Shown: piece by piece, positions 9,917 through 41,143 of the stretch
Position numbering within the stretch: position 1 is the first letter of the stretch
Layout: the number at the start of each line of letters is the position of its first letter
NCBI GenBank assembly: GCA_032718475.1
Contig: JAUCBJ010005079.1
Coordinates: forward strand, 1 to 44,432
Length of the DNA: 44,432 nt
Origin: Nemertoderma westbladi
Lineage: Eukaryota > Animalia > Xenacoelomorpha
Reading direction: 5' to 3'
Made by a program: the position numbers and the translations under genes
Notes under the pieces: generated by a model
The model's database searches: none
What the model saw: the letters and a program-made list of their open reading frames with translations, nothing else
Told to the model about the DNA's origin: nothing

Positions 9917-10381
9917 AAATCAGATCTCTCCAGGCACCTGAAGACTAAGTTCTTTCGAGTCACAGTGGAAAGTGTATTTTTATCCGGGGGTGAGACCTGG
10001 ACACTGACTAAATCACTTGAACAACGAATTGATGGTTGCTACACAAGACTACTAAGGGCAGCCCTAAACATCAGCTGGAGACAACACATGACAAACGCCG
10101 AGCTTTATGGTACAATACCACCTGTATCAACCACCCTCCGTGAACGCAGATTAAGATTCAGTGGGCACTGCTGGCGAAGTAAAGACGAGGTCATACCAGA
10201 TCTACTTCTCTGGCAACCAACTCATGGAAAGCGTAGTCGTGGACGACCGGCCATAACATATATAGATCAACTTGAAAGGGATACTGAACTTGGGAGAAAC
10301 GAAATTACGACAACTATGGAGAATCGGGAAGCCTGGGAGGATCTCATTTCCACTGTCCGAGTTCGCTCGACTTAGTAGTAG
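9917..10381 (+). mobile_element. 5'-truncated copy of RTE family B (same family as 33333-36847)
   Basis: Near-identical to ~36377-36841 (ORF 9965-10375 matches the end of the 1025-aa ORF) and has a (TAG)n tail. TATTCCTAGC at 9893-9902 and 10382-10391 is a probable TSD. Confidence 0.9.
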
Positions 10382-10680
10382 TATTCCTAGCTAGCCAGTG
10401 GCATCGCTCTTTGCCTGCCTGCCTGACTACGCCTATGACTACCTACCGAGCTATTCATTTATTCTCAACCTGTTTAGCTGATATTCCTACAGAGTCTGTT
10501 AATATATTTATATTTAAATTTATAGCTAAACGACAGATTTAATAATGATTGTCAATAATAAGGCTTATATCCAAAAGTGTTTATTTCTCAAAATATTAGG
10601 CTTATTATTTTTTGATAGGATTTCTGTGTATGCCTATTTGAATTATCTAAGTTTTTACACTGGGGCATTAACAAAGGGTA

Positions 10681-12268
10681 CACGTTCGTGGGGCCTTCGC
10701 GCAGCACGAGGCTCAGTTATGAGATACAAATTAAAATTGAGCAATTCTAGACAAAATCTGTATTTAAGAAATTAACCAAACCGCAAATAAATTATAAGAG
10801 GGGAAAGTTGCTCGCTTTGAATGACACAGTTAATGGTCTAGTACAAATATGCCAAGTTTCAGCTACATGTAGAACGGGTTTAAAGCAAAGAAAATGTGAG
10901 GATATTTAATATCTAGACATGTAGCCCTCTAGCGAGAGACTGAGGATTTGATGGTGTCTGGAAGTCCCTAAAAAACAAAACTGATGGTCTTATTGATGCC
11001 TACTAATTTTAGACTCGAAAGCTTTAAATCCGACGAAGTTATGAGTAAGTCACAATCGTAGCGACGATGGTGACATACAGTACCATTATTGAATGAAATA
11101 TTTGTCATAATTGACCTACCCCCCTAATAGATAGATAGAATCAGTTCGCAAAGGCTCCGCCAACTTCGTGGCTCGGACCCCATACCCCATGCTATAAAGT
11201 GTAATCGATCGATATACAATTATATATTAATCCGCTAGGTGGTGTCAAATTATTATTCTGCAATTTCGTACTTGTACAGTACAGCAGTACCGTACCGGTA
11301 GGCCTGTGTCATTACTTCGGAGTCTCTAGCCGATCCCAATTAAATGTCTTAAACTTTTCAATTTCGTAGAAGATAGACTTTATGATTCTCTACAGGCAAC
11401 CAAAATTTTAGCTCTGGAAAATGAGGCGTTCCCCAGAAATTTTACATTTTCTAAAAACCACATAATCTGTCGTAGCTGACGTCAGATTTTTCATCAAACT
11501 TTACAAATTTTCTAAACTTTCCCTTTACTACTTACCTACTAAGTTTGGTTCAATTTCGAATTAGTGATGCCGAGAAATTCGCGTTCAAACATTTACCAGG
11601 CAGACAGACAGGCGGACATGCCCCATTTGCCCTATATGAACCGTATGCCAAGTGGCTCGCCGTCTACGTGTCTCGCCCCACAGGTAAATTCAATTCATTA
11701 TTTGAATATCATTACTGCATCGACTGCATTTAGCTGTGTAGTACTGCGTTGATTATATTCCTATAAACCACACCTGGCTTCGCATAGTGATTGCATCGAT
11801 AGTTATGAGGATCATCAGTCTGCGTTTAGTGAATATATTTAAATACAAAACGGGACGAGCAGAACGAGTATTATAATGCAGTAATGAAGACGAGTACTGC
11901 GATTATTATATTCCTATAAGCCATACCTGGCTTCGCATAGTGATTGCATCGATAGTTGAGGATCATCAGTCTGCGTTTAGTAAATATATTTAAATACAAA
12001 ACGGACGAGCAGAACGAGGATTATAATGCAGTAATGAAGACGAGTACTGCGTTGACTATACTCCTATAAATCACCTGGATTCGCATATTGAACGCATCGA
12101 TAGTTATAAAGATCGCCAGTCTGCGTTTAGGAAGTATATTTAAATACAAACCTGGACGAGCACAACGAGGATTATAATGAAGACGAGTACTGCTTTTATT
12201 ATATTCTAAATTTTAATATTTGTGTCTCATAACTGAGCCTCGTGCTGCGCGAAGTCCCCACGAACGTG
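10681..12268. mobile_element. Non-autonomous TIR DNA element, CAC...GTG termini, TA flanks
   Basis: Imperfect ~55-bp inverted repeats CACGTTCGTGGGG(C/A)CTTCGCGCAGCACGAGGCTCAGTTATGAGA at both ends. TA at 10679-80 and 12269-70. No transposase ORF. Confidence 0.8.
11741..12206. repeat. Three ~150-bp tandem repeats inside the TIR element
   Basis: Units start GTACTGCG..TATATTCCTATAA at 11741, 11894 and 12044, with a partial fourth at 12187. Confidence 0.9.
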
Positions 12269-13399: not shown

Positions 13400-13701
13400 A
13401 GATATTCTTTCGCCCACGTCACCGGGGGTATCATATTGATTGTTAAGGTTGATTAGATTTGATTAGATTGTTAAGATTGATTAAGGGAAACTGGCGGGAA
13501 TTTTGAAATCGGTAATATTTCAAAATTCCCGCCAGTTTCCCTTAATACGGTTTATCCTTTTTATACCAGTAATCATACACCATTTATTAATTTATTTTGT
13601 GCTCGTAAAAGACCTGTTGGTCGAAAATTTGCACACAGTTTAATTTGTTATTAATTTGTCACCGCGAGTTTGGTCGTTCCTACATCTCTTCTTAACAATC
13701 A
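13400..13701 (+). mobile_element. Small insertion, possibly a Penelope-like pLTR remnant
   Basis: Flanked by AAATTCATATATTA at 13386-13399 and 13702-13715. It contains a 30-bp perfect palindrome and a minimal-hammerhead-like segment at 13598-13635. Confidence 0.45.
13480..13546. repeat. Perfect 30-bp inverted repeat with a 7-nt spacer
   Basis: ATTAAGGGAAACTGGCGGGAATTTTGAAAT-cggtaat-ATTTCAAAATTCCCGCCAGTTTCCCTTAAT. Confidence 0.95.
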
Positions 13702-16122: not shown

Positions 16123-16549
16123 CTGGGAAATAAATGGAGGGGAATTAATAACGAATAGGAAACACAGAGAACACAAATTATTTCATTTATAGAACTCAAA
16201 ATAGCAACGACTGCTGCTAGTGAAGTAATCAGTGTGTAAATTAATTAGCGAAGTGGAGATCTTGGGTTGAAATTGGGTAGCTGTGGTGTTACATAACGAA
16301 CAGTAGTGGGCTAAATAAACATGATCGACCACCGCACTATGAGGCAATGCGGGGTTATATTGGTTGTTCGTCAGGGGTACACCATAGCCCCATTTCTGTT
16401 CATTGTCATGGTGACAACGAGATATCCGTGTGGAGCCTTGGTGTGGAGCCACACAGATGGAGCCTGTGCCTTTGCTGAACTGTAACTGTTGAAATGGACT
16501 GGACACCTGTATTAGCAAGTTACAGAGGGTACACACACAATGTCACTCC

Positions 16550-16793
16550 GTGAGAGGTAACGCGAGAGGGCGCGAGAGGTAACACGAGAGGGCGCGAGAT
16601 GTAACGCAAGAGGGTGCAAGAGGTAATGCGGGAGGGCGCGAGAGGTAACGCGAGAGGGTACGAAAGGGCGCGATAGGTAATGCGAGAGGGCACGACAGGT
16701 AACGCGAGAGGGCGCGAGAGGTAACATGAGAGGGCGCGAGAGGTAACGTGAGAGGGCGCTAGAGGTTACGCGAGAGGTAACGCGAGAGGGCGC
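16550..16793. repeat. 22-bp minisatellite (GCGAGAGGTAAC + GCGAGAGGGC), left part
   Basis: Direct inspection. The array continues at 40032 on the other side of the Gypsy element. Confidence 0.95.
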
Positions 16794-17004
16794 TGATATA
16801 CTCTTGGACCCTGGATCTGAGACCTGGGATGTACCGGTAGGTAGGAGATATATTGCTTACTGTGTTGTTCTATTCATGGCCTGCCTGCGTATTACTGTTC
16901 TATGGACTGACACTTATATACTTACCTGAAATGTACTGAATATTAATATTACACTGCTTATTGCATATTATCAGTATTATTTTATATGTTCCGGGGTTAT
17001 TACA
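16794..17004 (+). repeat. Gypsy 5' LTR
   Basis: TGATATACTC...TTATTACA. About 9 mismatches (counted by eye) versus 39821-40031. Confidence 0.95.
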
Positions 17005-17087: not shown

Positions 17088-18920
17088 TTGCACCTGAACC
17101 GAAATGAGGTCAACGAATTAGATAGAGATGAAGTTAAACAACATCTCAAAAATCTCCAAATAAAATTCGCTGACACAACTTCCACAATCGATTTGCGACG
17201 GATACTATGGCGCGCAATTGATTGCAGACAGCGGAATCCCACGATTCACGATGTGGATGACGCTGGCGTTAACGGGAAGGATAACTCGGAAACTAACTCT
17301 ATGCAGCAATTCATGCAGCAAATGTTTCTACAACAACAACAACAAATGCAAATCCAACAACAAATGCAGCAGCAGCAACTGGATGCTGTAATCCGGGCGT
17401 TACAGACGCCCGGAGGCCGATGCCCATGGATCAAGCCATCCAGATTCAGTTAAACTTACAATCCAACCTCTGGATGCTATCGACGACGAAATCGCCTATC
17501 CCAAATTCAAAAAATGGAGTACATCTTGGGGCAATTACGCTCAGATCACAAAATTATCTGCCCGTTCCCGGGAGGACCAGGTTGCAACCTTTTGGTCTTA
17601 CTGCAGCCCAGCCCAGACTTTCTCCGGCGTGTGGGACACACAATCGGCATACAACAGGATACTAACTTAACTCTAACCGAGGTTCTGGATAAAATACACG
17701 ATTATCTTCGAAATCAACAGAATATTGTTGTAGATTGGTTTAAACTCATCCGACGCACGCAGTCACACAAAGAATCATTCAACGATTTCTGTACTGCAAC
17801 TCCGCGAGTTGGCTGGTGATGCTGGCTTGACCTCGATGACCAAAGACGAGTGGCTGGCGACCCTGATTGTTGGTGGTATCACAGACGACGAGGTGAGACA
17901 GGAACTTTTATCTAAGAAACCCGCTCTGGATCTGGAGGAGACTGTTGTTCTCTGCCGCAATCGCGAACTCACTGAAAGGGACGAAAAATGTCTTAAAAAT
18001 AAATATAACTCCTCAATATCATCGAATAAGGATACGGGTTGGTGGGGTTGTAGCAAATCCTATTAACCCCAATTAACCCCAATACAGTATTGGGCCAATA
18101 CTGTACCACAATCATAAACATGATTCCTGGAGGTCAAACAAGCAGCACGATAAATCGACAACGAAATCCACAGATTGCTACTTCTGTGGATGACCATGGC
18201 TATTGTCAGCGGATTCAATTCCCTGCATTACCCACCGAAAATGGGATTAGTGACATTTTACCAATTATAGTTGGTGAGGTGACATTACCAATAATAATGT
18301 CACCTCACAACCAACTAAGGCAATACACGCCGTAAGCCACAGGGAGAGTTAAGAGGTCAAACCACATCAGAGGGAAAAACAGGCTAGTAAGGCTAGCACG
18401 TGGGGATAGTGGCAACAGGGAATGGCGAGGTGACAATTAATCAGGTTAAGCCAATGGTGGGTGGGAGAGCACATTGGGAGTGATTAGAGCGCATATATTG
18501 GACACTCAGGCCACTCAGTAGTGTAGAGCTGATTTAGTATATGTTAATAATAATATAACCGTTGCAGTTATTGATTACTGGTTCAGTTGGTTCCTATACA
18601 GTTGTGAGACCGGAACAGTTTTAACCGTCATCACTACCGTGCTATTATAATCAGGCTGTGCTATTATTACGTTCTGCGATTATAAACACTGACAGTAAAA
18701 CTCAGTTATTTGAACGGCCTTCGGCCTACTATACACATCCAGACTATAGCTTTAGCAACCTATGGATGTGGCGATGCATATAACACACACTGGTCGGGAT
18801 CTATACTGCGAACTCCAAGGTCCCGTCACAGCTATATGAAACAGGTAAACCTTGTCCCGCTACACACAACAAGTGCAAGAACTGCAGGAAGAATGGCCAT
18901 TTCAGAGCGATATGTTGGAA
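17088..18920 (+). pseudogene. Gypsy gag, frameshifted and interrupted
   Basis: Fragments LDKIHDYLRNQQN..RRTQSHKESFNDF and LIVGGITDDEVRQELL, and a CPATHNKCKNCRKNGHFRAIC zinc knuckle at ~18850-18916. Confidence 0.75.
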
Positions 18921-19017
18921 AAAATCACAGAAGGGTCAACAGCGGAATAACAGTCCTAACAAAAAAAAAACTAGAGGAATTTTTATCGCTGGGATAAAAG
19001 AAACTGAAGCGGTCACT

Positions 19018-19535
19018 ATGAAATCTGAAACTTCAGCCCACATTGATGATACGGAATATCAGATAATCGATATGGAAACTCCTAAAGTCGCTCGAGTTAC
19101 AGAGAATTCCCCTGACAAACCCATTATAACAGTCGACTTCCTTACAACTGCAGGTAATCTAATGGGGAAACTTGACGTTATCGCAGACACGGGTGCGCAG
19201 GTATCAGTTGCCAGAATAAAAATCCTAAAGAAACTCCGTATTCAGAGGAGAAACCTTAAACCCGTAAATGAAACTTTCGAAAGTGTTAACGGACTCAAAC
19301 TCTCCTGCATTGGATCGTATTCAATGAATATGAAACTCAGTAATACAATGCATACTGAACGAATCGTTATCTGCAGGGATATCGAGGACATTTATATTCT
19401 CTTGGGCGCATGTAAAGGACTGAATATAGTCTACGCTGATTTTCCCTAACAACTTCCAAATTCGGTAGTTTCAGCCACCACCAAAATTTCAAACCCGGCA
19501 GATAAATCAATTGCTCAGAACCTATTGACAGATGT
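19018..19535 (+). pseudogene. Gypsy aspartic protease; the frame continues to the BEL insertion point
   Basis: VIADTGAQVS motif. After one stop the frame reads ...NLLTDV and resumes as NNPFISDIKEQ beyond the BEL element. Confidence 0.85.
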
Positions 19536-21224
19536 TGTTCGCGGTATTTCAACTTTTCTTAACGCGAGTTGAATATTTTTCGGATTTATTTGAAATGAAT
19601 ATTCCAATATCACTACTGGGCGCGGGAACATGGGATTTGGGCATATTCAATGGACTGGGGGCGATTTATGGGCGAATATTGGGGCGACTTACGGGGTACG
19701 GGACTCATGTCAGATATTTAAGGGCCAGGGGTAGGAGGCAAAGTTAAGCAGTATTCAGGTTTGCCTGATTACTATTAGGCCTAGCCAACTTCCTGCTGCC
19801 TGTAGAGGTGGATTTGGTAACTCGCTAGGCCTAAGGGACAAGGAGTGCCCTTAGCGGTCCCTGGCCAACAGTAGTTATTACGAGCCTGAATAAGGACTCG
19901 GAAAGTCTGCTGCTTGTGTCAGGGATTTGCGACGGGAACCGACAGACAGATCTTTAGCGGTCCCTGGTCACCGGCAGTTATTACAAGCCTGAATAAGGAC
20001 TCGGAAAGCTTGCCGACATACACCAGGGACTTGCGACGGGTCAACCGACTAACGGAGGATGGGTTCGACGAGGACTGCCTTCCTGGAGTGGGTTCCACGA
20101 CCGGCGTTAGTACGAGCCTGAATAAGGACTCGGAAAACTACCAACCGTTGGGGCTCACGACGGGCTGACAGACCCCTTGCCAAGCCGTACCGCTTTCCTG
20201 ATGACCAATCCCCTCGGGGTTCGGGAAGGGTGGGACGGAGACGCAATGGGGTCGAAAGACAAAGGACCAGGCTCCACTGGCCTACCGACTGTTCGGAGCA
20301 GCTTCTCGGCTACCAAAGCGACTACGAGCCTGAATAAGGACTCGGAAAGCTTAGGTGGTTGGGTCCCCGTGATGAACCGACGGACCCCTAGCCAAGCTGT
20401 ACCGCTTTCCTGATGACCGATCCCTTCGGGGTTTGTGAAGGGTGGGACGGACACACAAACGGGTCCACCGACTTGACAGACCTAGCCAAGCCGTACCGCT
20501 TTCCTGATGACCAATCCCTTCGGGGTTCGGGAAGGGTGGGACAGACACGCAACCGTGTCTACCGACTTGACCGACCATTAGCCAAGCCGTACCGCTTTCC
20601 TGATGACCAATCCCTTCGGGGTTCGGGAAGGGTGGGACGGACACGCAACCGGGTCTACCGACTTGACCGACCCTTAGCCAAGCCGTACCGCCTTCCTGAT
20701 GACCGATCCCTTCGGGGTTCAGGTAGGGTGGGACGGACACGCAACCGGGTCTACCGACTTGACCGACCCTTAGCCAAGCCGTACCGCTTTCCTGATGACC
20801 GATCCCTTCGGGGTTCGGGAAGGGTGGGACAGACACGCAACAGGGTCGACCGACACCGACACTACGGTACCAAAACTAGGACCGAGGGAAAATTGGGGAA
20901 CATTAGTTAGGTTAAAATCTATAACAAACAGTGGGTAATTAAATAATGTACTGAAGGGATTTATATTGTTGTGTTATATTATTGAATATTTGGTGTATAT
21001 TGGTTTGGGGAAGCCCAACTTATTCTCAATCAAGATTCAACCGTAAGGAAGTTATATTAAAGATTATATCCAACCAATGAAACTTTTCTCAACCGCAATC
21101 TTACATTTAAGAAAGTGATCCTTCTTCACTTTCAATATCTGGTGACTGGCCGGAATTCCGTGGTCTAAAAGTTCCACCTCCAGCATCGGCGTTTTCCCCC
21201 ATGGTATCGGGAATAACGGCAACA
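19536..21224 (+). repeat. BEL 5' LTR (1689 bp)
   Basis: Direct repeat of 31623-33118. TATTTAA at 19715-19721. Holds four A modules and six B modules. Confidence 0.92.
19846..20855 (+). ncRNA. Putative array of structured RNA hairpin modules in the LTR
   Basis: Manual folding gives k-turn-consensus C(UUCG)G hairpins (96-bp period) and ANUA/GAA plus GAAUA-loop hairpins with compensating outer stems. Confidence 0.6.
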
Positions 21225-21431
21225 AAATTGAGAATAAGACGCGGCCAACTTCAACTGGTGGAAGTTGGGAATCCTACAGTACTCTTCAAACTCTCTCCGT
21301 GCTTACCCAGCACCCACTACGAGGAAACTCTGGTATTTGATTTAAGACAAAGCCGTGGTTCAATCAAATTACAAACTCGAACTAAAAAACTCGTAGTCGG
21401 CAGATCACATATAGAGAGTTGTTAACAGGGA

Positions 21432-21623: not shown

Positions 21624-24600
21624 CGAGGAATAACGTCTCCGATACTGATGAAATGGACCCCCACACAGACTCGGAAACCGACGAGGCACCGAATGTGAAG
21701 AACATGGCTCGTCGACTGGGAGCTCTCAAAGGTGGAGTGACTCGAGCATACCACTGCATCGAGAAACAGCTAAAGGGCGCCGAGACTCCCCTCAGCGATA
21801 TACAGACTCAATTACAGAATATCCTAAGTATCTTACAACGATACGAAAGCATGATACAGCATATCAGGAACTCATTCCCGCAACCGATCTGGGAAACTAC
21901 CCCAGACTCGAAGAACACGTACCACATTTGGACGAGTTCCGCAAGCAACATCGGAGGACCCTCAGCCTCATAAGAGGCTACGAGGAACAGTATTATAAAC
22001 AAACTGAAAGGGCGGACGCAGAATCAGTACAGACCTCCGGTACCAGAACCGTGGTTCAGGGAAAAAGAACTGGGTCCTCGAGGCACCAGCACTCCAGCGC
22101 TAGGAGCGAGATATCTGGTTCAGCGCGCAGTTCCCAAGGGGGTCAACCACTCTGAGATCAGCTGCGAGAACAGAGGGCATTGGCTCTTAAAGCTCGAATG
22201 GAAGATGAGTATGTCCAACTGGAAATTGAACAGGATGCACTGGCGGAGGAAAGACATAAACAGGAGGCCGAAATATATGCCAAACAACAAACGCAAGAGG
22301 CCGAAATACGGTCCGAAAAATGTAAACAAGAGGCCAAACTATGTAAACGAGAGGCCGAACAACAGGCCGAAATACGTAAACAAGAGGCCGAAATGTGTAA
22401 ACGGAACACCAAGGCCCAAGCGATTCTTGTTCATAAAAAGAATGCGGACATTGCTAAACTCACAGACTACGAAGCTGCACTCATAGAATGGGACCTTCAA
22501 CTATACGAGGACTGGGAAAGGGGTATAGAACAGGATTATGTAACAATTCCAGTCCCGGAGTTAGAAAAGTCATTTACACCACCGGCTGCGGAACCCCCAA
22601 AACCTGAGTTCCCGCCTACTATACAGTCTACGTTATCGGCACAAGCACCGGTATTCCACCCCTCACCGGTTATGCTTAAGAATGAGGAACCTTATTTCCC
22701 ATCTAATCCCACGGCACCGAGCGTTCCCCAGTACGAGTCTGAAAAGGACTCGGAACGGGACGCCACCCCTCAATCCAACAATCCGTTCACATCCATACCG
22801 AAAATCCGTAACCGCGTCATCATTAAAACTCCACCTCTCGTCGATCCATCGTGCATGGGAGAAAATGTGAATAACTATAATCCTCCTAGTCATTCCAGTT
22901 CGGATGACGTTGGCATCATCCGAGCCTTGGAAAACCGCCTGGCTATGCCCAATATGGAGATCCGCACCTTTGAGGGAGACCCCGTCGATTACCTCAGATT
23001 CAAGAAACGGTTCTTCGCTCAGATCGGGTCAACGGATATAACCGACGCACAAAAACTGGTATATTTATCCCAATACCTGGGTGACAAACCACGTCGAATC
23101 ATTAAATGTTTCGAGGGAGGATCTCACGAAGCGTACTACGACGCATGGAAAACTCTAGACAAAAGATACGGAAACATCGGAACTATAATTAATAAGACGC
23201 TCAAGAAACTGATACAGGACGCTGGGTCCCTAGGGGACCCACAGAATATCCAAGAGTTCTCGGACTCTATGAAAGATGCCTACTACACTTTAAACCATTA
23301 AACAAGGAGGAACAAGTAAACAACATTTTAAACCTCCGACAGATTGCCCGAAAGTTCCCCGGATGGCTGCAAAGCAAATGGGCGTATAAATGCGTAGATC
23401 TCCGACGCAGACACCCAGATCGGGATCCCAGTTTCCTCGAAATGTCGGCATTCCTAGATGATATCTCCGAAGCCATGAATGACTCGATGTTCTCCAAACA
23501 AAGTCTCTCCAAGTTAGACAGAATAGAGAACAACTCTAGGAGCAGGACACCCACTCCGAAACCGAGATTCCGTCCCCCTCCGGTGAGTACGATGGCCATC
23601 AATCACCATGGCCGAGGATTCTGACGACGAGAACTACGAGGAACTGACATCAGGCGAGGAATGGGCGTGTTATCTAGTGAATTGGGCACCCGAAAGGGAA
23701 GGCACCACAACCTCCCTTCTATATTGCTTCTGCGGAGAGAAACACAAGGTGGAATTCTGCAGAAAGTTCCAGTTTGCTGAACTCGTCCCACGCTTCGAGG
23801 CGATAATGAAACACCGAGGATGCTTCCGGTGTTTCGGAACAGGTCACTATGTTCGGGATTGCGACCAAAGATCGTGCTGCGCGGTCTGTAATGACCTACG
23901 TCATCACACACTCCTCCACATCCCTGCGAACTTCGATTTTACCACCCTCCCGTTCCGGATCGAATCCAAACGGAGAGGAGAAACGAATCACGTCTCTAAG
24001 GGTACCCGGACGATTCAATGGAAGGAAACCAATCCATTTAAAACCGCCACCGATGTATCACATGTGACAAATATTTCGGCTACGATCAATCTTATAAACC
24101 GCCAATACATGGTTTTCGCCAAAGTGATCCCAGTAAGAATTCAAGGGGTTGGGAAATCCTTAACAACGCTCGTGTTCCTTGACAATGGGTCGGACGGAAC
24201 CATCATCGACTGGGATTTCCTCGAACAACTAGGCCTAGACTACGAACCTTGCAAACGGCCCATACAAACTATTACCGACCATAGAGAAGTGGAGTCCGGG
24301 GAGGTATAACTCAAGATGGAAGGGGTTATGAAGGGTTACGAGACGGTCAAACTGATGATCAAGAACGCTCTGGTACACAACGATCTCCGAGTGCGGTTCC
24401 GACAATCATCTGAATATGCACCCCTCATACAACTAGACTGGGAAGATGTAGATCTACGATGCCCGCCGTTGGACGTGAACCAAATTACCCTATTAATCGG
24501 ACTCGACACACCGGAATTACACATACCAACCGGAGACATCGCCCGATCCATAAAGCCGGATGACAGTTTTTATGCAGAACGCACCATCATGGGATGGACA

Positions 24601-27600
24601 TTATGCGGCATCAAAGAGCAGACTACTGACACCTATACATATCTCCCTAAATGCCAGATTAAAGAGAATTCAACATCTGTGGATTACTGTTCAGCCACTG
24701 ACCCGGACGAGGATTTATTCCTAGAAACTGAAAAAACCCAGCAGGAAATGACCAAGTACTTTAACTCAGAGACCCAAGAGTTTGCTGAAAAGGACGAAAA
24801 CCCGTCCGAGGAAGATCAATATTGTATCGACATCCTTGATCAGGCCACGTTCAAAGACGGACATTGGTGTTCGCCCATGCTGTGGAAAGACCCAGATAGA
24901 CCGATGGCGAATAATGCCAGCATGGCCCTTAGGAGGCTTAAGGGGATCCGGTTAAACGACCTACCCGAGATAAAGGAGAAATACAATAATGTAATTAGAG
25001 GATATCTAGAAGATGGATTGGCGGAAATGGTACCCCGGAATGAACTGCAAGGGGGTAGACGGACGTATTATCTCCCAACCCACTATATGATAGAAGCCCG
25101 GAAGGGTTGTAAAATCCGGGTAATGAATGATGCTGCGGCTATGTATCAGGGCGAATCCCTGAACAGCCAACTTTATACAGGGCCCAACATCTACAGTACA
25201 CTCATCAGCGTGTTGATCAGGTTCTGGGAAAACCGAATAGCCTTCACCTGCGACATCAAAGCAATGTTCCACCAGGTCCGAACGCTACCAAGAGACTCAG
25301 ACTGTCTACGTATATTATGGACAGATAAAACATTAACTCGAGAGGAGATAAGTCAACTCACCTTGAAGGATGTGGACATAATGCGCATGATTGTCAGGAT
25401 CTTCGGCGCTAAGGACTCGCCGGTGGCATGTAGTGACATGCTGAAGAAAACAGCGGCTATGTGCAAAAACGAGTTTCCTCCGACAGTCATAGAGACCATC
25501 CAACGATGCTTCTACGTAGACGACGGATGCGCCGGTGCCGATAATGTCAACGAGGCATATCAGCTGGCGATGGGAATGGTGGAATGTTTAAAGAGAGAAG
25601 GCTTCCCTCTCGTAAAGTTTAGATCCCACGATAAGGAACTTATGGAAAAGTTCCCGGAAGAAATCAGACTAGACGACAATAAAATGTATTCCGAGGGTGT
25701 GGATCACCATGTACTCGGTATCGAATGGGACATAGAATTGGATGAGTTCATCTTCAAATATAACCCCCTACCCAAGCCCATGACAAAAAGGGGATGTCTG
25801 TCTATAAAAAGTGCTATATTTGATCCACTAAACTTCATATCTCCAGTAACATTGGCCGGAATGAATTTGATCAAAGAATTGTGGATAGAAGGACTGGGTT
25901 GGGACGAAGAACTCCCCCTACACCTCAGTGCTAAATGGAGAAAGTGGATGGAACAACTCGAACATCTACATCTTATGCGGATCCCTCAACCGTTCTTCCT
26001 CGATAAACTACCCACCGATATATTCCAGCTCCATACCTTCTCGGACGCATCGAATACCGGAATCAGCGTAGTTACCTTCCTAAGAAGATTAAGTCAGGAT
26101 GGAAACAGCGATACGAGCTTCTTATTCTCTAAGGCTAAGACAGTATCCAGGGAATTCGTAGCAACGATACCGAGACTCGAGCTACAGGCTGCAGTTTGGG
26201 CAGTGAGGCAGAACCGCATGATCATGCGGAACTTACGAATCCCCATCGAATCGCAGCATTTCTGGGTCGATTCGGGTATCGTACTCTACTACCTCCACTC
26301 ACCATCACGGCAACACACCACGTTTGTAGCGAACCGAGCCACTGAGATAAAACAGTGCACCGGCCGAGAACAGTGGCACCATGTAAACGGGAAAGAAAAC
26401 CCAGTGGATTTATCGAGCAGAGGCGCCACCCCACAACAACTCGGTAAAAGTAAACTCTGGCTTACAGGCCCGGAATTCCTACAGCAGCCACAATTAACCT
26501 GGAGCACCCGATTCGATCACAAACTAGATAGTGAAAAATACTCCGAAGACGACAAGGAGATCCGTAAAGTCCATAGAAGCGCCACAGTGGAGATCTATAG
26601 TTGTCTGAACGAGCCTGCAAAGGACTCGGGCAAGCACTATAATATCGCGACTACCACGCAACCAGCGGCGTCTTTACAACTATTGATAGAGCGAACCTCC
26701 TCAATGAGACGTCTCATCCACCACATCTTAACCCTTCGCAACTTCCTGCGGTGGAAGGACAACAAACCGATAGTTTGACGAAGTATACAAGAACTCATTA
26801 TTGCGGAGAAGTGTACCGGTATTGTTAGATATGTCCAGAAAGAAAGTTTCCCCGATGAGTGGGAACAACTCAGTGCGGGCAAAACCTTGAAACCGGACAG
26901 TCCAGTCTACCAATTGAGACCCATGATGGGAGAAGACGGACTGATTCGACTGAATACCCAGATGGCAAATGCCCCGGTTGAATACGAAGTCAAATACCCA
27001 GCGCTTCTACCCGGAATGTCAACATTAGCCAAGCTATTAATCCAACAGTGTCACGAAGAAAACCATCACGCGGGACAGAACTGGATTATGGCTAATATAC
27101 GGCAAAGATATTGGATCACCCACATCCAGCCACTGATCCGGAAAGTGTTAAAGCGTTGTTTTCCCTGCAGAAGATATCTAGCGCCAACGCTCACACAAAG
27201 AATGGCCAACTTACCAGCCACACGACTGCAGTCCGATTCCCCGCCGTTCTACGTAACCGGAGTAGACTGTTTCGGACCATTTACAGTCATCGAGCGACGA
27301 TCCAACATCAAATGCTGGGGGGCTATCTTTACATGCCTTAGGTCTAGGGCAATCTACCTAGACCTCGTAGTGAACCTTACGCAACACGCATTTCTCAACG
27401 CCCTGCGTCAGTTCGTGGCAAACAATGGAACATGTCGTCGTATGTACTCCGATAATGGAACAAACTTCGTGGGAGGAGAAAGAGAACTTAGAGAGGCGAT
27501 CGAGGGATGGTTCACCGAAGAGACCGCATCCCAAGTCTGGAGGGAACACCATATACAATGGCACTTCCAAACACCCTTGGCAACCCATACGAGCGGGGTA

Positions 27601-28224
27601 TGGGAGAAGCTCATCGACTTGGTAAAACGATCCATGCGCGTCGCATTAGGGGACATCCGGGTAACCCACGACACCCTTCGCACAACATTCTGCGAGATCA
27701 CGGCTACCCTAAACAACTGGCCCATCATACCTATTCACGACAACCCCACAGATCTGGAGCCTCTTACACCTAACCATCTACTCGGAAGACCTAAAACCAA
27801 CATTCTTCCAGAGGCGATGTTCCCAGATCCCAACAATATTGCTAGACACACCAATTGGAAAAAGGCCCAAGCACTGGCAGCGCATTGGTGGAGAATTTGG
27901 GCCCAAGAGTACCTCATAACCCTCCGGACCAGGAGGAAGTGGAATAACACCTACAAGAATGTCGCAGTTGGCGACATGGTGCTAGTTAAGGAAGACCTTA
28001 AAGACCGCGTCCACTGGCCTGTGGCGCGAGTCGTGGAAATAGCCCCAAGTAAAGACGGACTTGCGAGGACTGTGATGATACGAACGGCAAAGGGCCACTA
28101 CCAACGCCCTATCCAGAGGCTCTGCCTTCTTGAAGGCAATGACAGCGGTGATTCTACGAGAGGTGATAAGATCCCTACTCAGGATCCTGCTGCAGACATT
28201 GGTGACAATGCTAAACCCGTTTAA
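21620..28224 (+). pseudogene. BEL/Pao gag-pol polyprotein (DUF1759-like gag, Cys/His knuckles, protease, RT, RNase H, integrase) with a few stops and frameshifts
   Basis: Motifs FEGDPVDYLRF, CFRCFGTGHYVRDC..CAVCNDLRHHTLLH, FLDNGSDGT, DIKAMFHQV, FYVDD, FSDAS, TIPRLEL, GVDCFGP, SDNGTNF and GVWEKL. In-frame stops at 22153, 24307 and 26776; frameshifts near 21900, 23298 and 23606. Confidence 0.95.
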
Positions 28225-28879
28225 ACCCTTCTCATCCTGTTGACAAACTCTTTTAAATGTGATTTACTGACAATGAATAATGGATCCCCCTTAAACCAAC
28301 TGTATCCACGCAATGGTATTTGTGTTTCCTCGTGTGTTATGTGGAATCCAGAGTCACCCTGCAGATGTTTCGACTGACGCAGGGTAGTTTATGTATTGTT
28401 CACCCTGATTTTGGTCATCAGGACCAACTATATTGGATTATTGGAAATGGTAAAGATTTGAAGTGGAATTCATTGTATCCATTGTGTTGTATTGTGTTGT
28501 CCGTTGCATGCGCAGTTCGGGGCGTAGGCAGTTTAACTAGTCCAGCTGTAGATCCCGGATTGCCGCGCAACACCCCCTCTATCACGTTATTCTGGCAGGT
28601 CCATGATGCATCCACATGACTTCGTCGATAGAGGTTTCATGTTTCTCAGTCGCGTTATTCTGGTGGGACCGTTGCATGGATTTTGGGGCGTAGGTGGTGT
28701 AACGAGTCCGGCTGTAGATCCCAGAATGTTGCGTAACCCCATCCCACAATGAAAATTTCCCAAAGAAGATGGTTGAATGTAGTTGGAAATGATGAAAAGA
28801 AACAGACGACCCTACTATAAACTGAATGATGACGCGTATGATGATGAAAATGTAATGATGCACACCCTGGTGCTGCGCT

Positions 28880-29130
28880 TATAACAAATGATGATAGCCG
28901 GGGGCTATAACCCCAATGATGAAATGGAAATGATGAAATGAAAATGATAAAATGTGGAAATAAATGAAATGTGTAATAAATGTGAAATAAATGTGGAAAT
29001 AAATGATGAAATGTGGAAAGAAATAATGAAATGTGAAATGAGTAATAAATGAGAAATGAAAAAAGACAAAAAAAATGTATAAAATGTAGAAAGTAAAAGA
29101 ATTGGAAAAAGAAGAGGACATAAAAAGTCA
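28880..29130 (+). repeat. C-poor low-complexity (AAATGA/AAATGTG) tract between pol and ORF3
   Basis: Direct inspection. Confidence 0.8.
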
Positions 29131-29331
29131 AAACTGGTTGGATATTAATGTATAGCTATAGTAACTGTAAATACTGAATGTAGTAGCAATAAGATGGTAG
29201 ATGCCTATATAGCAATAATAATTAATAAACTGAATTACAAATAAACTGAATTATTCTGCAGTCACTATAGAATCAGACTTTCTGGATTTATAATTAACTG
29301 ATGTAAATTTGCAACGGACATAATTGAAAAT

Positions 29332-31458
29332 ATGGACCCAAATCGCCAAATTATCGGCAAACTACGTAATACAATAGATTTACTGGAATATCCACAGCCT
29401 GGATCTCCCAACTTTGATACAGCATGGAATGCCCTGATAGTTGAGAATGTGCGAATCATTAAATTCTCCGGGCGAGAGGGACCGGATTCCCGTAATCTAC
29501 GAGAGCTCCAGTTGACCGATGTTAGTACGAGACTGAAAAGAACTCGGAACACAAAGGAAACCGGAGGAGAGGAGTTGTCATTCTGGGAAACGTTCCGGCA
29601 AAGCGTCTACAAATCTCGATGTTTGATATACAACAACGAGGGAAACGCGACGCCCACCTCGAAAGCGATTACGTTGGCGTGATGCCAAAGTTTTGTCGAC
29701 GACAAGAGTACGTACCTCACCCACTGGGGAAACCTAGCGGAGTGTACGGCGACGCTGCGAGAGGAACGTATATCAGTTATCCAGAATCGCGACGACTACC
29801 AGGAGAAGTATGGGACAAAGGAATACGGTCGATCATTAGTCGTCATCCTCGGAACCCTAGATGGTCTGGTGTTGATATGTCGAATATTTCCGACACCCAA
29901 ACAGGAGATGCGGACAGCCAGAGCGATCTGGCTATTACCACCGGAGATCCAACAGATCCTATTTGATTTCGACATCACTAAAATCGGGTCGGATATAAAG
30001 GCGGACGTCCGAAATGACTACGCTAACGCTCCTTTCGGAAGAAACCGTCGAGAAGATCTCAACGCCATTAGTCATTGCATTGACACCCAAATACTGCTAG
30101 CCTGGTTGCGATCCGCAGAATTCATGCGAGGATTCCGAGAGATGAGACGGACGAAATCCGGTATCGGCTACCTCGCAGTGCTAAACGGCGGTATAAACTT
30201 TAAACCCCAGAAATTCCAGGATTATAATAAGATATATGGTGGGCACCCGGAATTAGAAATAAAGAGTGAGCGAGAGAGTCGCTGGAAGGATGTAGAAAGA
30301 AAGTGGATGATCCACCACAAGTGGGAGAATCCAGATCGACGGAACTTTATCTACATCGTAATGGAATCATACACAGTTGCCAAGTTCATCTGTAAGACTC
30401 TTGATAGTCTCATTAAGGCAGTTCCTAGATCCTTTATCGACTATGAGTGGAACGAAGTTATCGACCACGCATTCAAAGCGGTAGAGAATATTCCACCAGG
30501 AGAAACGAAAAGGCTCACCGTCATCACATCCTGGGACGAGAATGGACCATTCGACATCCCTACGGTTGCTGATCTCCTCGGTGCGGAGGAACCACTGCTA
30601 TCTTCGGATGGGGAGGAATTATGGCTACAGGAAGGTGTTCTGCTGTCCACCCCAAAGCGACAACTCGATCCAGAAGTCGCTTACAAACCGGCCGCCAAAC
30701 GGGTCGCCTCGGCCAAACCTGCGACGGAAGCAGGTGTATCTACCCCACTTGGCTCCGCCAGTCCCGCTAGGGAGCTAGTAACTACCTTTGCGTTGAATGA
30801 CTTCGGCGTCATATGTCAGAGGTTGTCTCCATATCCGTTCCCGGGGGGAGAAGACTGGTCTTCGGAGATCCCGAGTACCAGCACCCAACAGACCCACTCA
30901 GCGATACAGGTTGCAAAGGGTCCCAGCGTTGCTCCGACTCCCGTAGATCTCCTCAGAATTCCTCCGTCGAATGCCCCGGCACCTCTTTGTCGACCAGCTG
31001 TGGCAACGACCCCTTCCGTTCCACAAGACCCTATGCGACTTACCCAATGGTACGCCGAACAGACTGAATGGATCCACCACCAGAAACGGGCGCCCGGGAT
31101 GTGACTGGCAGGATATAAAGAAAGTTATCGAAATGAGAACATCCTACGCCAAAAGAACATCCTACTACCATTCAATTACGTGGATCTATTATTAAGCGCC
31201 GGATTATTCGGTCCCTTCGAGATCCTTAGGCGTCACTCCTATAAGGAAGAATTCGGTGACGGAAAGTGGTTCCTAGAGGCACGCACTACCGAGTTGGAGA
31301 GACGGACGGATATGATCCCGCTACCATCTAAAGGAAGAGCCGCCAGGAGACAAGCTGAAGCGATGCTCACGATGGATGTTGATGCTCCCCTACCAACACT
31401 GGCGATCGACGAGAGTAGACGGGCGAAGAGGAGAAAGGCGTATCAGAGTAAGAAATAG
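29332..31458 (+). pseudogene. Extra ORF3 (~708 codons, two internal TGA) with a DEDDy/WRN-like 3'-5' exonuclease domain, Pro-rich linker and Arg-rich C-terminus
   Basis: ORFs 29332-29682, 29869-31104 and 31180-31458 share one frame, separated only by TGA at 29680 and 31102. Motifs LIYNNEG, VILGTLDGLVLICRI, LPPEIQQILFDFDITKIGSDIKADV, CIDTQIL and KWENP..IYIVMESY. Confidence 0.7.
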
Positions 31459-31622: not shown

Positions 31623-33118
31623 TCGCGGTATTTCAACTTTTCTTAATGCGAGTTGAATATTTTTCGGATTTATTTGAAATGAATATTCCAATATCACTAC
31701 TAGACGCGGGAACATGGGATTTGGGCATATTCAATGGACTGGGGTGATTTATGGGCGAATATTGGGGCGACTTACGGGGTACGGGACTCATGTCAGATAT
31801 TTAAGGGCCAGGGGTAGGAGGCAAAGTTAAGCAGTATTCAGGTTTGCCTGATTACTATTAGGCCTAGCCAACTTCCTGCTGCCTGTAGAGGTGGATTTGG
31901 TAACTCGCTAGGCCTAAGGGACAAGGACTGCCCTTAGCAGTCCCTGGCCAACAGTAGTTATTACGAGCCTGAATAAGGACTCGGAAAGTCTGCTGCTTGT
32001 GTCAGGGATTTGCGACGGGAACCGACAGACAGATCCATAGCGGTCCCTGGTCGCCGGCAGTTATTACGAGCCTGAATAAGGACTCGGAAAGCTTGCCGAC
32101 ATATGCCAGGAACTTCCGACAGGTCAACCGACTAACGGAGGAAGGGTTTGACAAAGACTGCCTTCCTGGAGTGGGTTCCACAACCGGCGTTAGTACGAGC
32201 CTGAATAAGGACTCGGAAAACTACCAACCGTTGGGGCTCACGACGGGCTGACAGACCCCTTGCCAAGCCGTACCGCTTTCCTGATGACCGATCCCCTCGG
32301 GGTTCGGGAAGGGTGGGACGGACACGCAACGGGGTCAAAAGACAAAGGACCGGACACCACTGGCCTACCGACTGTTCGGAGCAGCTTCTCGGCTACTGAA
32401 GTGACTACGAGCCTGAATAAGGACTCGGAAAGCTTAGGTGGTTGGGTCCCTGTGATGAACCGACAGACCCCTAGCCAAGCCGTACCGCTTTCCTGATGAC
32501 CGATCCCTTCGGGGTTCGGTAAGGGTGGGACGGACACGCAAACGGGTCCACCAACTTGACAGACCCCTAGCCAAGCCGTACCGCTTTCCTGATGACCGAT
32601 CCCTTCGAGGTTCGGGAAGGGTGGATGGACACGCAACCGGGTCTACTGACTTGACCGACCCTTAGCCAAGCCGTACCGCTTTCCTGATGACCGATCCCTT
32701 CGGGGTTCGGGAAGGGTGGGACAGACACGCAACAGGGTCGACCAACACCGACACTACGGTACCGAGACTAGGACCGAGGGAAAATTGGGGAACATTAGTT
32801 AGGTTAAAATCTATAACGAACAGTGGGTAGTTAAATAATGTACTATAGGGATTTATATTGTCGTATTATATTATTGCAAATATTTGGTGTATATTGGTTT
32901 GGGGAAGCCCAACTTATTCTCAATCAAGATTCAACCGTATGGAAGTTACATTAAAGATTATATCCAACCAATAAAACTTTTCTCAACCGCAATCTTGCAT
33001 TTAAGAAAGTATTCATTCTCCACTTCCAATATCCGGTGACTGGCCGGAATTCCGTGGTCTAAAAGTTCCGCCTCCAGCATCGGCGTTTTCCCCCATGGTG
33101 TCGGGAATAACGGCAACA
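31623..33118 (+). repeat. BEL 3' LTR (~1496 bp; four A and four B modules; lacks the initial TGT)
   Basis: Aligns to 19539-21224 and is about two 96-bp units shorter. Confidence 0.92.
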
Positions 33119-33332
33119 TATGTTAACAATCCATTTATTTCGGATATAAAAGAGCAATTACTCAAACAATACGCAGATGTATTCAGATCACAGGGTAAAC
33201 TGTCGACAAGGGTTAGTGACCCGATGCGTATAGAACTAAAAGACCACGTGCAACCATTCACTATCCATACAGCCTGCCCAATTCCATTCGCACGCTGTGA
33301 GAATGTTAAACAAGAAATTGACAATATTTTAA
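32972..33332 (+). repeat. Left copy of the ~361-bp target-site duplication of the RTE
   Basis: Repeated at 36848-37208 with about 3 mismatches. Confidence 0.95.
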
Positions 33333-36300
33333 GTAGTCAGGTCAGGTCCCCAGATCCTGCTACCACTATGGCAGTAATGTGGTACTACCTGTAGCTGTCA
33401 GCCCAGTAGGGCAGGCCCGATAAGCATAGCCTATTCATTATTTAGTTGATCAAGAGTGGGTTGGTTCAGCCCCGTCAACTAAATAAGTCATTGAAGGCAA
33501 AGGCTCGATACGCATCTGCATTAGAGATGATACAAGCCCCGCCCTGTCTATACTGGATGCTCCTCTACCAGTGTTAGGTAACCTAACCCAGGAGGCACAC
33601 TTGGTTCAGGGTGTAACAAATGGACCCCTACAGTCGGCAGCAGGGCTGTAGGCCATGGGTAGGCGGAAGGTAATCAACCAACGGCTAGACATGCTGACAA
33701 GGTCGGCGGAAGGTAATCAACCAACGGCGACCTACTGCGAAGACGCTTGTAGGAGTTGTGACCACAAGCAGTTTACTCCCGCAACTGAAAGATATGAGTA
33801 TGAGAACCCTCCAGGAGAAATACCGGCTCGGTCGTCGCCCGGGTCAACAAGGACCGCGTCCCTCAGTGGTACACCAGGCTGGGGTCGATAACTACGCTAC
33901 TGGAACAGAAGACAGAGAAGAAAGAAGAACCAACCTGTTGAAATGTAAAAAGACACTAAAGATTGCTACAATGAACGCACGCACGCTGAAAGCACAGAGC
34001 AAACAGGGTGACATAGTCGCTCTGGCAATGGAATATAACATCGACACCATCTGCATCCAAGAACATCGGATTTGTCATGAAGACACTGCCATGAAGTTCA
34101 ATGACATTGGAAATGGATGGACGTTAGTAACAAGCTCAGCAGTAAGAAACTCGGCCAATGCATTAATTGGTGGAGTAGGAATTCTGCTAAGCCCATTTGC
34201 ACTTAAGACCCTAAATAACATCGAATCTATAAATTCCAGGGTTATGATCGCAACATTTGATAGGAATCCCAAGACAACAGTTATATGTTGCTACAGTCCA
34301 ACCAATGCATCAGAGCCAGAACAAGCAGTCAAGTTTTATGAAGAACTGACTGGACTTATTAAGGACATCCCGAAACACAATGTCAAAGTCATTGCTGGTG
34401 ACCTGAATGCGCAAATTGGCCCAGAAGACATCAAGGGTTACACCTATAACACCAGTTCTAACAGAAATGGGTACTTACTTTTAGACCTAATGGAAGAATG
34501 TGAATTGATACCAACAAACAACACATTCGAAAAGAGTAAGGGGAAGCTATGGACCTTTCAATACCCTAATGGAACCAAAGCACAACTGGATTACATCCTT
34601 ATAAACAAAAAGTGGAGAAATAGCATGATCAACTGCGAGGCATACAGCTCATTCAACCTAATTGGTTCGGACCACAGAATTGTGACTGCAGAGATCAGAC
34701 TCAGTTTGAGAGCCAGCAAACCCAGGACAAGCAAGCAAATCAACTATGACTGGGAGAAACTCAGAACTGACAATGCTGTAAAGGATGCTTATACAGTAGA
34801 AGTTCAAAACCGCTTTGAAGCACTTCAGTCAATGGATGAAGACCAATCCACCGATTCAATATACCAGAATATAATAACAGCCCACAAGGAATCAGCTAAG
34901 AGGCATATCCCCCTGAAACCTAAACGAAAACAGTATGTGCCATGGCAAAACTGTGAGGTTACTTGTAAGAGAGAAGATCTTAAGATAGCCTACAAAGTTA
35001 AAACCGAACAACCAACAACCGAAAACATTAACAAGGTTGAGAAAGCTAAGGACGATCTTAAATTGGCCTACAACATCAGCCAGGAAAAGTACATACAGGA
35101 TAAAACTGAAGCAATTACAACTGCTCACATACAGCAACAATCAAGACTTACCTGGCAAACTGTAAATGAGGTATCTGGTCGGAAAAGTTGTGCAAAGGGG
35201 TGCCTCAAAGCTGATAGTCCTGAAGAACGTGTTGGAAAGTGGAAAAATCACTTCAGCAACTTGCTTGGGCAGCCACCAAACATCGAGGTCAGCCCTACAA
35301 GGAAAATATATGACAAGACACTACCTATAGAAACAGGGGACTTCACACCTGCCGAACTCCAAAGAAGCATTAAAAGCATGTCCAATAATAAAGCGAGTGA
35401 ATTAGATGAAATCCCAGCGGAGGTATGGAAAACCGGAGTGCTAAATAGACCATTATTGAATGTTTGCAACCGGATGTTAAAAGGGGAAAAGCCACCACCA
35501 ATTTGGACTAAAGGTCAACTAAAGCCTCTCCCCAAGAAAGGAGACCTCGGCATACCAACAAACTATCGTGGGATCTGTCTGCTTGTGGTAGCTGCCAAAA
35601 TATACAATAAAATGATTCTATATAGGATTAGGCCTCACATAGAGAAACTACTGCGTAAGAGCCAAAACGGATTTCGACCAAGTAGATCAACAATAGCTCA
35701 GATACTTGCACTACGGAGACTGATTGAAGGAATTAAGTCAAAGAATCTCCCCGCAGTCATGACTTTTGTGGACTTCAAGAAGGCATTCGACTCCATCCAT
35801 AGAGGTAAAATGCTTGAAATCCTAAGAGCTTATGGAATACCAGAAGTAATTGTTGCTGGCATTGGATTGTTATATTGTGACACAGAAGCGCAGGTACTCT
35901 CACCAGATGGTGAAACTGAGTTTTTCTCAATTCTGGCTGGCGTACTGCAAGGTGACACCTTAGCACCATTACTATTTGTAATTGTGCTGGATTACGCAAT
36001 GAGGATGGCCACAAAGGGTGAAGATCTGGGATTCACACTTCAAGAACGCAGAAGTAGTAGATATCCGGCAACTACAGTCACAGACACCGACTTTGCGGAT
36101 GACATTGCCCTGCTCTCTAATACGCTAGCAGATGCACAGCTTCTACTAAATAAAGTGGAGAGGGCTGCTAAGAAGGTTGGATTGCATATAAATGCTACCA
36201 AGACCGAATTCATGACCTTTAATGTTGATGGAAACTTGACAACCATTGATAATAATCAACTAAGGAAGGTCGATGACTTCCAGTACCTTGGATCATGGAT

Positions 36301-36847: not shown

Positions 36848-37208
36848 TAAAACTTTTCTCAACCGCAATCTTGCATTTAAGAAAGTATTCCTTCTCCACT
36901 TCCAATATCCGGTGACTGGCCGGAATTCCGTGGTCTAAAAGTTCCACCTCCAGCATCGGCGTTTTCCCCCATGGTGTCGGGAATAACGGCAACATATGTT
37001 AACAATCCATTTATTTCAGATATAAAAGAGCAATTACTCAAACAATACGCAGATGTATTCAGATCACAGGGTAAACTGTCGACAAGGGTTAGTGACCCGA
37101 TGCGTATAGAACTAAAAGACCACGTGCAACCATTCACTATCCATACAGCCTGCCCAATTCCATTCGCACGCTGTGAGAATGTTAAACAAGAAATTGACAA
37201 TATTTTAA
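36848..37208 (+). repeat. Right copy of the ~361-bp TSD, including a second copy of the BEL 3' terminus (ending 36994)
   Basis: Matches 32972-33332. Confidence 0.95.
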
Positions 37209-39820: not shown

Positions 39821-40031
39821 TGATATACTCTTGGACCCTGGATCTGAGACCTGGGATGTACCGGTAGGTAGGAGATATACTGCTTACTGTGTTGTTCTAT
39901 TCATGGCCTGCCTGTGTATTACTGTTCTATGGACTGACACTTATATACATACCTGAAACGCACTGATTATTAATATTACACTGCTTAATGCATATTATCA
40001 GTATTATTTTATACGTTCCGGGGTTAGTACA
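39821..40031 (+). repeat. Gypsy 3' LTR
   Basis: TGATATACTC...TTAGTACA followed by the GGCGC TSD. Confidence 0.95.
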
Positions 40032-41052: not shown

Positions 41053-41143
41053 ACAAGTGAATGAAAATGAAACGCTAATTGTCATTGTTGTCACACATGT
41101 CAGCATGTCATATATTAATTTTGTATAAGTTTAGGTAGGAGTA

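Follow-up and report, generated by a model that had tools for sequence, protein, structure and literature searches.

The element and its surroundings

The window analysed here, that is, the whole stretch of 44,432 nt of Nemertoderma westbladi contig JAUCBJ010005079.1 (assembly GCA_032718475.1) read on the forward strand, carries a BEL/Pao LTR retrotransposon on the + strand. Comparison of the LTRs places the 5′ LTR, with TGTT...AACA ends, at 19536-21224 and the 3′ LTR at 31623-33118, where the element ends; the first three bases of the 3′ LTR differ or have been lost. The two LTRs are ~95.8 % identical in a 5′ versus 3′ alignment, AATAAA occurs in the 3′ LTR at 32970, and the element is flanked by a target duplication of 5 bp with one mismatch (19531-19535 and 33119-33123). 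A gag region with DUF1759 (21652-23298, +) and a pol region for zinc knuckle, protease, RT, Pao peptidase-RNase H and integrase (23587-28221, +) were delimited with Pfam, and both are interrupted by stops. The Pfam matches within the element are to DUF1759, zinc knuckle, protease, Pao peptidase A17, an integrase zinc finger, and DUF5641. With the integrase region, 696 proteins with the same domain set were found at E ≤ 1e-20 among the matches listed, at ~40 % identity, and its named best relatives were mostly from marine invertebrates and fish. The element is assigned to BEL/Pao because of DUF1759, the Pao peptidase A17 and the C-terminal integrase/DUF5641, combined with these ~40 % identical relatives; the gag-pol domain set, the TG...CA LTR ends and the target duplication are all present. 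The copy in the window is decayed, several stops breaking its ORFs. An ATGA/AAT-rich low-complexity spacer (28745-29250) lies between pol and an extra ORF, here called ORF2.

Other genomic copies were seen through contigs of four runs (at most three samples, X1 and X2 being from one sample) aligned to the window. The family is multi-copy, since contig coverage of the LTR is large (2524 contigs in X1) compared with that of the flank, which is only thinly covered; the depth units used below are not a copy number.

The BEL element itself apparently sits inside a Ty3/gypsy-like pol (18784-19535 and 33119-39013), signs of which are a protease-like stretch 5′ of the BEL element and RNase H and integrase zinc-finger matches at 38003-39010. 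A 361-bp duplication (99 %; 32972-33332 and 36848-37208), which includes the end of the 3′ LTR, flanks a LINE-type ORF with endonuclease and RT (33698-36835), the last 467 bp of which recur at 9917-10383. The window also holds a purine-rich 10/12/22-bp minisatellite (16485-17004 and 39821-42420), a 1.28-kb duplication (39858-42420), a 150-bp repeat in three to four copies (11729-12206), and a perfect inverted repeat of 30 bp (13480-13546).

Module A in the LTRs

According to the original prediction, a near-invariant core, termed module A, would occur four times in each LTR on stems that differ and still pair, with a loop-E motif and a boxB-like pentaloop. A search of the window for the 26-nt core at up to three mismatches returned eight copies, all exact and all on the + strand, as predicted for the two LTRs, with none expected from 100 shuffles. 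Their ANUA motifs start at 19877, 19980, 20109, and 20321 in the 5′ LTR and at 31960, 32063, 32192, and 32404 in the 3′ LTR. The core of A1 (19876-19904, +) comprises a loop-E/sarcin-ricin-type internal loop, a 4-bp stem, a bulged A, a 3-bp stem and a GAAUA loop, and its outer stem spans ~19854-19931. A2 (19979-20007, +) has one stem mismatch, at 19985, and an outer stem homologous to that of A1 with compensating changes, and A3 (20108-20136, +) and A4 (20320-20348, +) carry AGUA/GAA and ACUA/GAA, respectively. The 3′ LTR cores lie at 31959-31987, 32062-32090, 32191-32219, and 32403-32431 (all +). The CAAG variant noted earlier is present at 19985 in A2 of the 5′ LTR; the 3′ LTR has G at that position, so the variant is confined to the 5′ LTR. 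Between the two LTRs the cores differ at 1 of 108 positions versus 63 of ~1490, a borderline difference (~0.06, calculated by hand).

The stems named in the original prediction do form in plus-strand folds, but the LTR flanks are of three unrelated types and not four, because those of A1 and A2 are homologous (87 % over 62 nt) and those of A3 and A4 are unrelated. For A3, fold prediction places a large, poorly paired internal loop between the named stem and the core. Fold z-scores for A1 to A4 were -4.3, -3.95, -3.0, and -2.44 on the plus strand and -1.57, -3.42, -0.69, and -0.23 on the minus strand, A2 alone being comparable on both. G-U counts in the LTR folds are equal by strand (37 and 37) and say nothing about strand asymmetry.

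No Rfam family matched module A, and no match at all reached the gathering threshold; the sole match at E up to 10, traJ-II over module B (E 0.26), falls below the cut-off and was taken as chance. A search of viral contigs for the hairpin gave no matches. Metagenome matches to the 20-nt hairpin (seven loci, representing two distinct sites) are without ANUA/GAA flanks and without a BLAST match to the window, and were likewise put down to chance.

Module A inside coding regions

As proposed with the original prediction, a covariance model was built, from the eight LTR copies alone, and run on the window. The search of the 10.4-kb interior of the element gave three further matches, all on the + strand (29512-29562, E 1.6e-4; 22730-22755, E 4.4e-4; 26610-26629, E 0.046), corresponding to extra copies at 29524, 22730, and 26610. 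The earlier count of eight was right for the LTRs and missed these three copies in coding sequence; the total is 11, and all 11 are on the sense strand. Elsewhere in the window, a second model made with 10 of these copies gave no match better than E 0.089. A wildcard pattern, fixed after the copies had been seen, fits all three interior copies without mismatch, and none of 200 interior shuffles matches it at up to two mismatches.

The internal copies occupy linker-like positions. The one in gag (22729-22756, +) lies in a proline-rich linker and has a GAAA tetraloop, a U-G hinge pair, AGUA/GAA and an outer stem of its own. The pol copy (26606-26633, +), in the interval between the Pao peptidase domain and integrase, has a GCAA tetraloop and has lost the loop-E pattern. 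Near the start of ORF2, the third copy (29523-29550, +) shows a GAAA tetraloop, an A.A hinge and AGUA/GAA. The gag and pol copies are in one reading frame and the ORF2 copy is in another. A shared peptide motif as the source of these copies was rejected, because two frames, unrelated proteins and eight noncoding copies are involved. Successive copies from A4 through gag, pol and ORF2 up to the first one of the 3′ LTR are 2409, 3876, 2918, and 2436 nt apart. On the plus strand, the pol copy has a clear local fold (z -3.8) and the gag copy a marginal one (-1.85); for the ORF2 copy the fold does not surpass that of shuffles (-1.0; minus strand, -1.95).

Location within ORFs also bears on a further idea, in which the module would be a small self-cleaving ribozyme of a new kind, whole or half, like those of retrozyme LTRs. 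Loop B of the hairpin ribozyme has a similar AUUA/GAA motif, and the adjoining module B holds the hammerhead-like letters CUGAUGA. Cleavage at the three copies inside ORFs would destroy the message, however, and no Rfam ribozyme matched either at the gathering threshold or at E up to 10. The catalytic positions of the hairpin and hammerhead ribozyme cores are absent from the module by eye. By-eye comparison with the hairpin ribozyme, the hammerhead, group II domain 5 and the BTE produced no fit. Because of the copies within ORFs, a ribozyme is regarded as extremely improbable.

Pairing of the flanks

The outer stems of A1 and A2 have 97.2 % of cells paired; of 27 pairs, 2 carry changes on both sides and five on one. 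In the covariation check suggested earlier, the signal over the helix was not significant on four sequences (48 of 500 shuffles do as well), and near the core it was absent (356 of 500 shuffles). A flank-swap test on unrelated flanks was stronger. The 5′ flanks of seven contexts were assigned to their 3′ flanks in all 5040 assignments, using flanks of 14 and 20 nt; pairing of own flanks ranked 6 and 7 of 5040, respectively, and 4 and 6 of 720 when A2 was left out. The own 3′ flank was the single best partner in four of the seven contexts with 14-nt flanks and in three of the seven with 20-nt flanks. That own flanks pair better than swapped ones, and that pair and loop variants follow RNA rules (see below), lends support to the proposal that selection acts on RNA structure, as far as can be judged from the sequences.

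This pairing would be a by-product if module A were a site acting at the DNA level, such as a U3 enhancer repeat or a VANDAL/VANC-like anti-silencing target, or a neutral repeat that template switching has spread. U3 regions often contain tandem repeats, which tend to be interpreted as transcription elements (PMC3601003), and tandem DNA targets are known for some proteins encoded by transposons (PMC5735166). The core is also an imperfect palindrome, and modules have been shuffled in other copies. On the other hand, module A is found on one strand only, unrelated flanks pair with their own partners, variants obey the rules of noncanonical RNA pairs and GNRA loops, and module B is capped with UUCG; the copies inside ORFs argue against a DNA enhancer in particular. 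A DNA-level or neutral origin is thus considered very unlikely.

The internal loop

The sarcin-ricin motif is described as a 5x4 loop in which the middle pair is AA or AC and the lower pair UC, AC, GA, CC, AA or UA (PMC8450098). In module A, the upper A.G and U.A pairs and the middle A.A pair are kept in 10 of the 11 copies, the exception being that in pol. The lower noncanonical pairs in these 10 copies are UA, GA, CC and UC, all of which belong to the published six-member isosteric set; the chance that all four types fall within a set of six out of sixteen is ~0.01-0.02 by hand, relatedness of the copies being ignored. Variation among other genomic copies of A1 points the same way. An abundant contig type has both 19876 and 19904 changed, giving C.C, and in addition a change at 19903 giving A.C, both of which are allowed forms; A.C as the middle pair is the bacterial H95 form (PMC8450098). 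In this contig type, the hinge C-G pair is lost. No variant of at least 2 % was seen at the upper A.G and U.A positions in the contig tables, which under-report changes near contig ends.

The bulged base was predicted to be the variable site, and this agrees with its distribution in the 10 motif-bearing copies (G in four, U in four, C in two), with U or C in six of the eight LTR copies. Non-G bulges are rare, and A or C at the bulge was destabilising by ~5.5 kcal/mol in published duplexes (PMC8450098). The U.A pair could also form normally, a caveat to the loop-E reading. With 10 of 11 copies fitting and the pair variants staying within the isosteric set, the loop-E reading nevertheless gains support.

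The apical loop

The loops are GAAUA in the LTR copies and GAAA, GCAA and GAAA in gag, pol and ORF2, respectively, so that 11 of 11 fit G-N-R-A with an optional looped-out base; in gag and pol the tetraloop stands on a paired hinge. The U of the A1 loop is missing in other genomic copies at 4748/17224 (X1), 7505/20851 (X2), 7784/19189 (X3), and 409/409 (X5) depth units, and the same U is likewise missing from A4 in other genomic copies. In X2 and X5 the depth of the A1 deletion is exactly the sum of two variant types that enlarge the small loop at the bulged A, and in X1 and X3 the two agree to ~95 %; from these depths we infer that the deletion is linked with the variants.

Because of the internal tetraloops and the dispensable loop U, GAAUA is read as a GNRA fold with a looped-out base. 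GNRA pentaloops of this kind are documented, and their extra base often contacts protein (PMC12550061). Of the boxB-like pentaloop originally proposed, the loop fold therefore stands, being of the GNRA type and lacking the loop U in gag, ORF2 and other genomic copies; the likeness to boxB does not extend beyond the loop. As the pentaloop is present at all four LTR positions, versus tetraloops in the internal copies and in other subfamilies, the loop appears to have changed in a concerted manner within the LTR, which suggests template switching, co-evolution with a reader, or both.

The transcript and module B

An LTR 12-mer (21019-21030, +) is complementary to a candidate primer-binding site at 21227-21238 (+), whose first base is the third one past the 5′ LTR; the 12 bp match perfectly, and among 647 other internal 16-mers there is one that also reaches 12 bp against the LTR. 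For self-primers, at least 10 bp at 0-5 bp after the LTR has been used as the criterion in the groups named Tf1/Sushi, Tcn1 and TAR, BEL being outside its scope (PMC6317226), and the complement found here lies within these limits. Among the papers listed, the literature search yielded no case of a self-priming BEL element, and no tRNA genes were found. The sequencing runs listed for the window included none of RNA, which has no bearing on expression. If the 12-mer is a self-primer, transcription would start near 21019 and the modules would lie in U3. A genomic RNA starting there would carry the three internal and the four 3′ copies, seven in all; the 3′ copies are part of the sense transcript wherever the start lies.

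A second type of unit, module B, is present six times in the 5′ LTR (20179-20860, +), one unit being located between A3 and A4. It displays a k-turn pattern (PMC2952850), with a 3-nt bulge (GAU) and tandem GA/AG, mostly under a UUCG cap. The 3′ LTR has two units fewer (~32260-32745), for a total of 10, and no copy was found inside a coding region. Of the 10 units, 4 passed a strict k-turn scan, which had no other hit across the window; energy models also predict an alternative, slipped helix in competition with this fold. Contig joints between 19938 and 20837 show modules A and B in differing orders and numbers in other genomic copies, which indicates that the LTR array is being shuffled.

Such an array could also serve contacts between RNAs, in that the GNRA loops and loop-E faces would pack onto receptors, either within one genomic RNA or between two, and thereby compact or dimerise the RNA. 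GNRA loops commonly take part in long-range RNA contacts (PMC12550061), the copies from A4 to the first 3′ copy are evenly spaced, and the adjacent k-turn-type units could bend the array. However, no receptor was seen by eye, the loop is not self-complementary, and the inserted loop base is better suited to contact with a protein (PMC12550061). RNA-RNA docking is accordingly judged distinctly unlikely.

The extra ORF

ORF2 (29332-31455, +) follows pol, contains two stops and ends in a basic C-terminal tail. Protein-language-model features relate it to 3′-5′ exonucleases of the DEDDy/WRN type: 24 of 30 ESM Atlas matches fell in the PF01612 set with a score of 0.92, as did all 30 among the named clusters, a lead-level result from a single source. 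Searches with the extra ORF against Pfam, PHROG, NCBIfam and the PDB were empty or at chance level, and no homologues were found at E ≤ 0.001. A representative library gave three weak matches. The ORF aligns with the unnamed proteins P0001 and P0003, one of which has a faint PF01612 match (E 0.2); P0001 matched zinc knuckles only, and P0002, a fibronectin-repeat protein, was dropped as a relative. The structure model is poor (pLDDT 44), and a fold search with it returned nothing at E ≤ 0.001. In a three-sequence alignment inspected by eye, the motif II Asp and the motif III Tyr/acid are present and the acidic pair of motif I is not evident in this decayed copy. As a lead, the extra ORF may thus be exonuclease-like and of the DEDDy type.

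DEDDy extra ORFs occur in bdelloid LTR elements, without a demonstrated function in the part of that report considered here (PMC5408684). In Egalitarian, an exonuclease-homology domain helps to bind bent stem-loops without catalytic residues (PMC13186709).

A possible function of module A

The combination of a fixed core, changeable stems, a single strand, copies in three coding regions and variation according to RNA rules makes an RNA recognition site the best reading of module A. Since compensating changes are never seen in the stem letters of the core, the core would be recognised by its sequence as well as its shape. The favoured reading, held to be about as likely as not, is that module A is a dispersed docking tag for a protein of the element itself, with particle assembly as its purpose; the partner, Gag or the exonuclease-like extra ORF, is a guess. 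The RNA would fold as modelled, the variable outer stem merely holding the fixed core in shape. Genomic RNA from ~21019 would then present seven tags: one each in gag, pol and the extra ORF, at intervals of 2.4-3.9 kb, and a cluster of four in the 3′ U3. Multivalent binding by Gag, through its zinc knuckle, or by the exonuclease-like protein would mark the RNA of the element and gather it into the particle, and the LTR cluster would grow, be shuffled and be homogenised through template switching. Dispersed packaging signals have a precedent in the many stem-loops along a single-stranded RNA genome (PMC6281560). Against a packaging tag speaks that no copy of module A lies just after the 5′ LTR. 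Packaging signals of the retroviral type are usually found there.

Alternatively, the hairpin might be bound by a host factor, its repeats serving the export, localisation, translation or stability of the unspliced genomic RNA. The copies cluster in what is likely the 3′ untranslated U3, the adjoining module B has the pattern of k-turns, which are a known platform for host proteins (PMC2952850), and Egalitarian-BicD reads a bent stem with a 3′ bulge, also within the I-factor coding region (PMC13186709). The form of the loop, however, differs by subfamily and changes jointly at A1 and A4, which would better fit a fast-evolving element-encoded partner or plain homogenisation than a fixed host reader. 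Moreover, Egalitarian targets are reported to be without overt common sequence, whereas the core of module A is sequence-fixed. A host reader is therefore held to be unlikely; the choice among a protein of the element, a host reader and RNA-RNA packing is one that we infer.

Taking the docking tag for an own protein further, this BEL/Pao retrotransposon might possess a tag-and-reader system of its own, in which the loop-E/GNRA hairpin, present in the genes and arrayed with k-turn hairpins in the LTR, is read by a captured exonuclease-fold protein turned RNA-binding adaptor, tag and reader changing together between subfamilies. This extended scheme is speculative and held to be unlikely. A tag of the proposed kind would offer the unexplained exonuclease-like extra ORFs of retroelements a possible role, and the LTR itself reads as an array made up of textbook RNA 3D modules, in place of DNA enhancer sites. 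Self-RNA selection by LTR retrotransposons is largely open beyond the yeast and retroviral models, and nothing was found on it for BEL/Pao. A 26-nt candidate signal with natural variants in both LTR and coding sequence brings the question within reach of tests on short RNAs and isolated protein domains.

Comparison with known systems

A literature search, covering mostly open-access titles and the openings of abstracts, found no description of a module like A in BEL/Pao or other LTR elements. Each component motif is standard, and RNA viruses offer known cases of dispersed signals; within what was covered, such a module in an LTR element appears to be undescribed. With the sarcin-ricin/loop E motif, module A shares the 5x4 loop, the upper A.G and U.A pairs, the A.A or A.C middle pair and an isosteric lower pair. 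At their starts and ends, the copies in gag and ORF2 have AGUACGAG and GGAAC, respectively, as does the 28S loop itself. Module A differs in having seven base pairs and a bulge between the motif and the GNRA loop instead of one pair, in carrying U or C at the bulge in most LTR copies, and in the pol copy, which is without the motif.

The boxB hairpins of lambda and P22 likewise have a five-base loop that becomes GNRA on removing one base, a base that is naturally dispensable in module A. Unlike boxB/nut, module A is eukaryotic and without N protein, boxA or phage context, and tetraloop forms are common in its family; between the basic tail of the extra ORF and the arginine-rich peptide of N there is a resemblance only. 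The bdelloid elements Juno and Vesta also have an exonuclease-like extra ORF after pol, and the main text of their description mentions neither "hairpin" nor "secondary structure" (PMC5408684). The element studied here is BEL/Pao, and its copy in the window shows no evident first acidic motif. VANDAL/VANC offers a parallel in that a motif specific to the element undergoes tandem expansion and may co-evolve with a reader that the element encodes (PMC5735166); the targets of VANC are DNA motifs in a plant DNA transposon, whereas module A follows RNA rules.

Packaging signals of the MS2 TR type resemble module A in the many stem-loops along the genomic RNA, with a common apical loop and a bulged A (PMC6281560), and several sense-strand copies along the genomic RNA, as expected of dispersed packaging signals, are indeed found for module A. 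In contrast to these signals, module A has a core that is nearly fixed in sequence and has a loop-E motif within it, is clustered in LTRs, and is borne by a retrotransposon.
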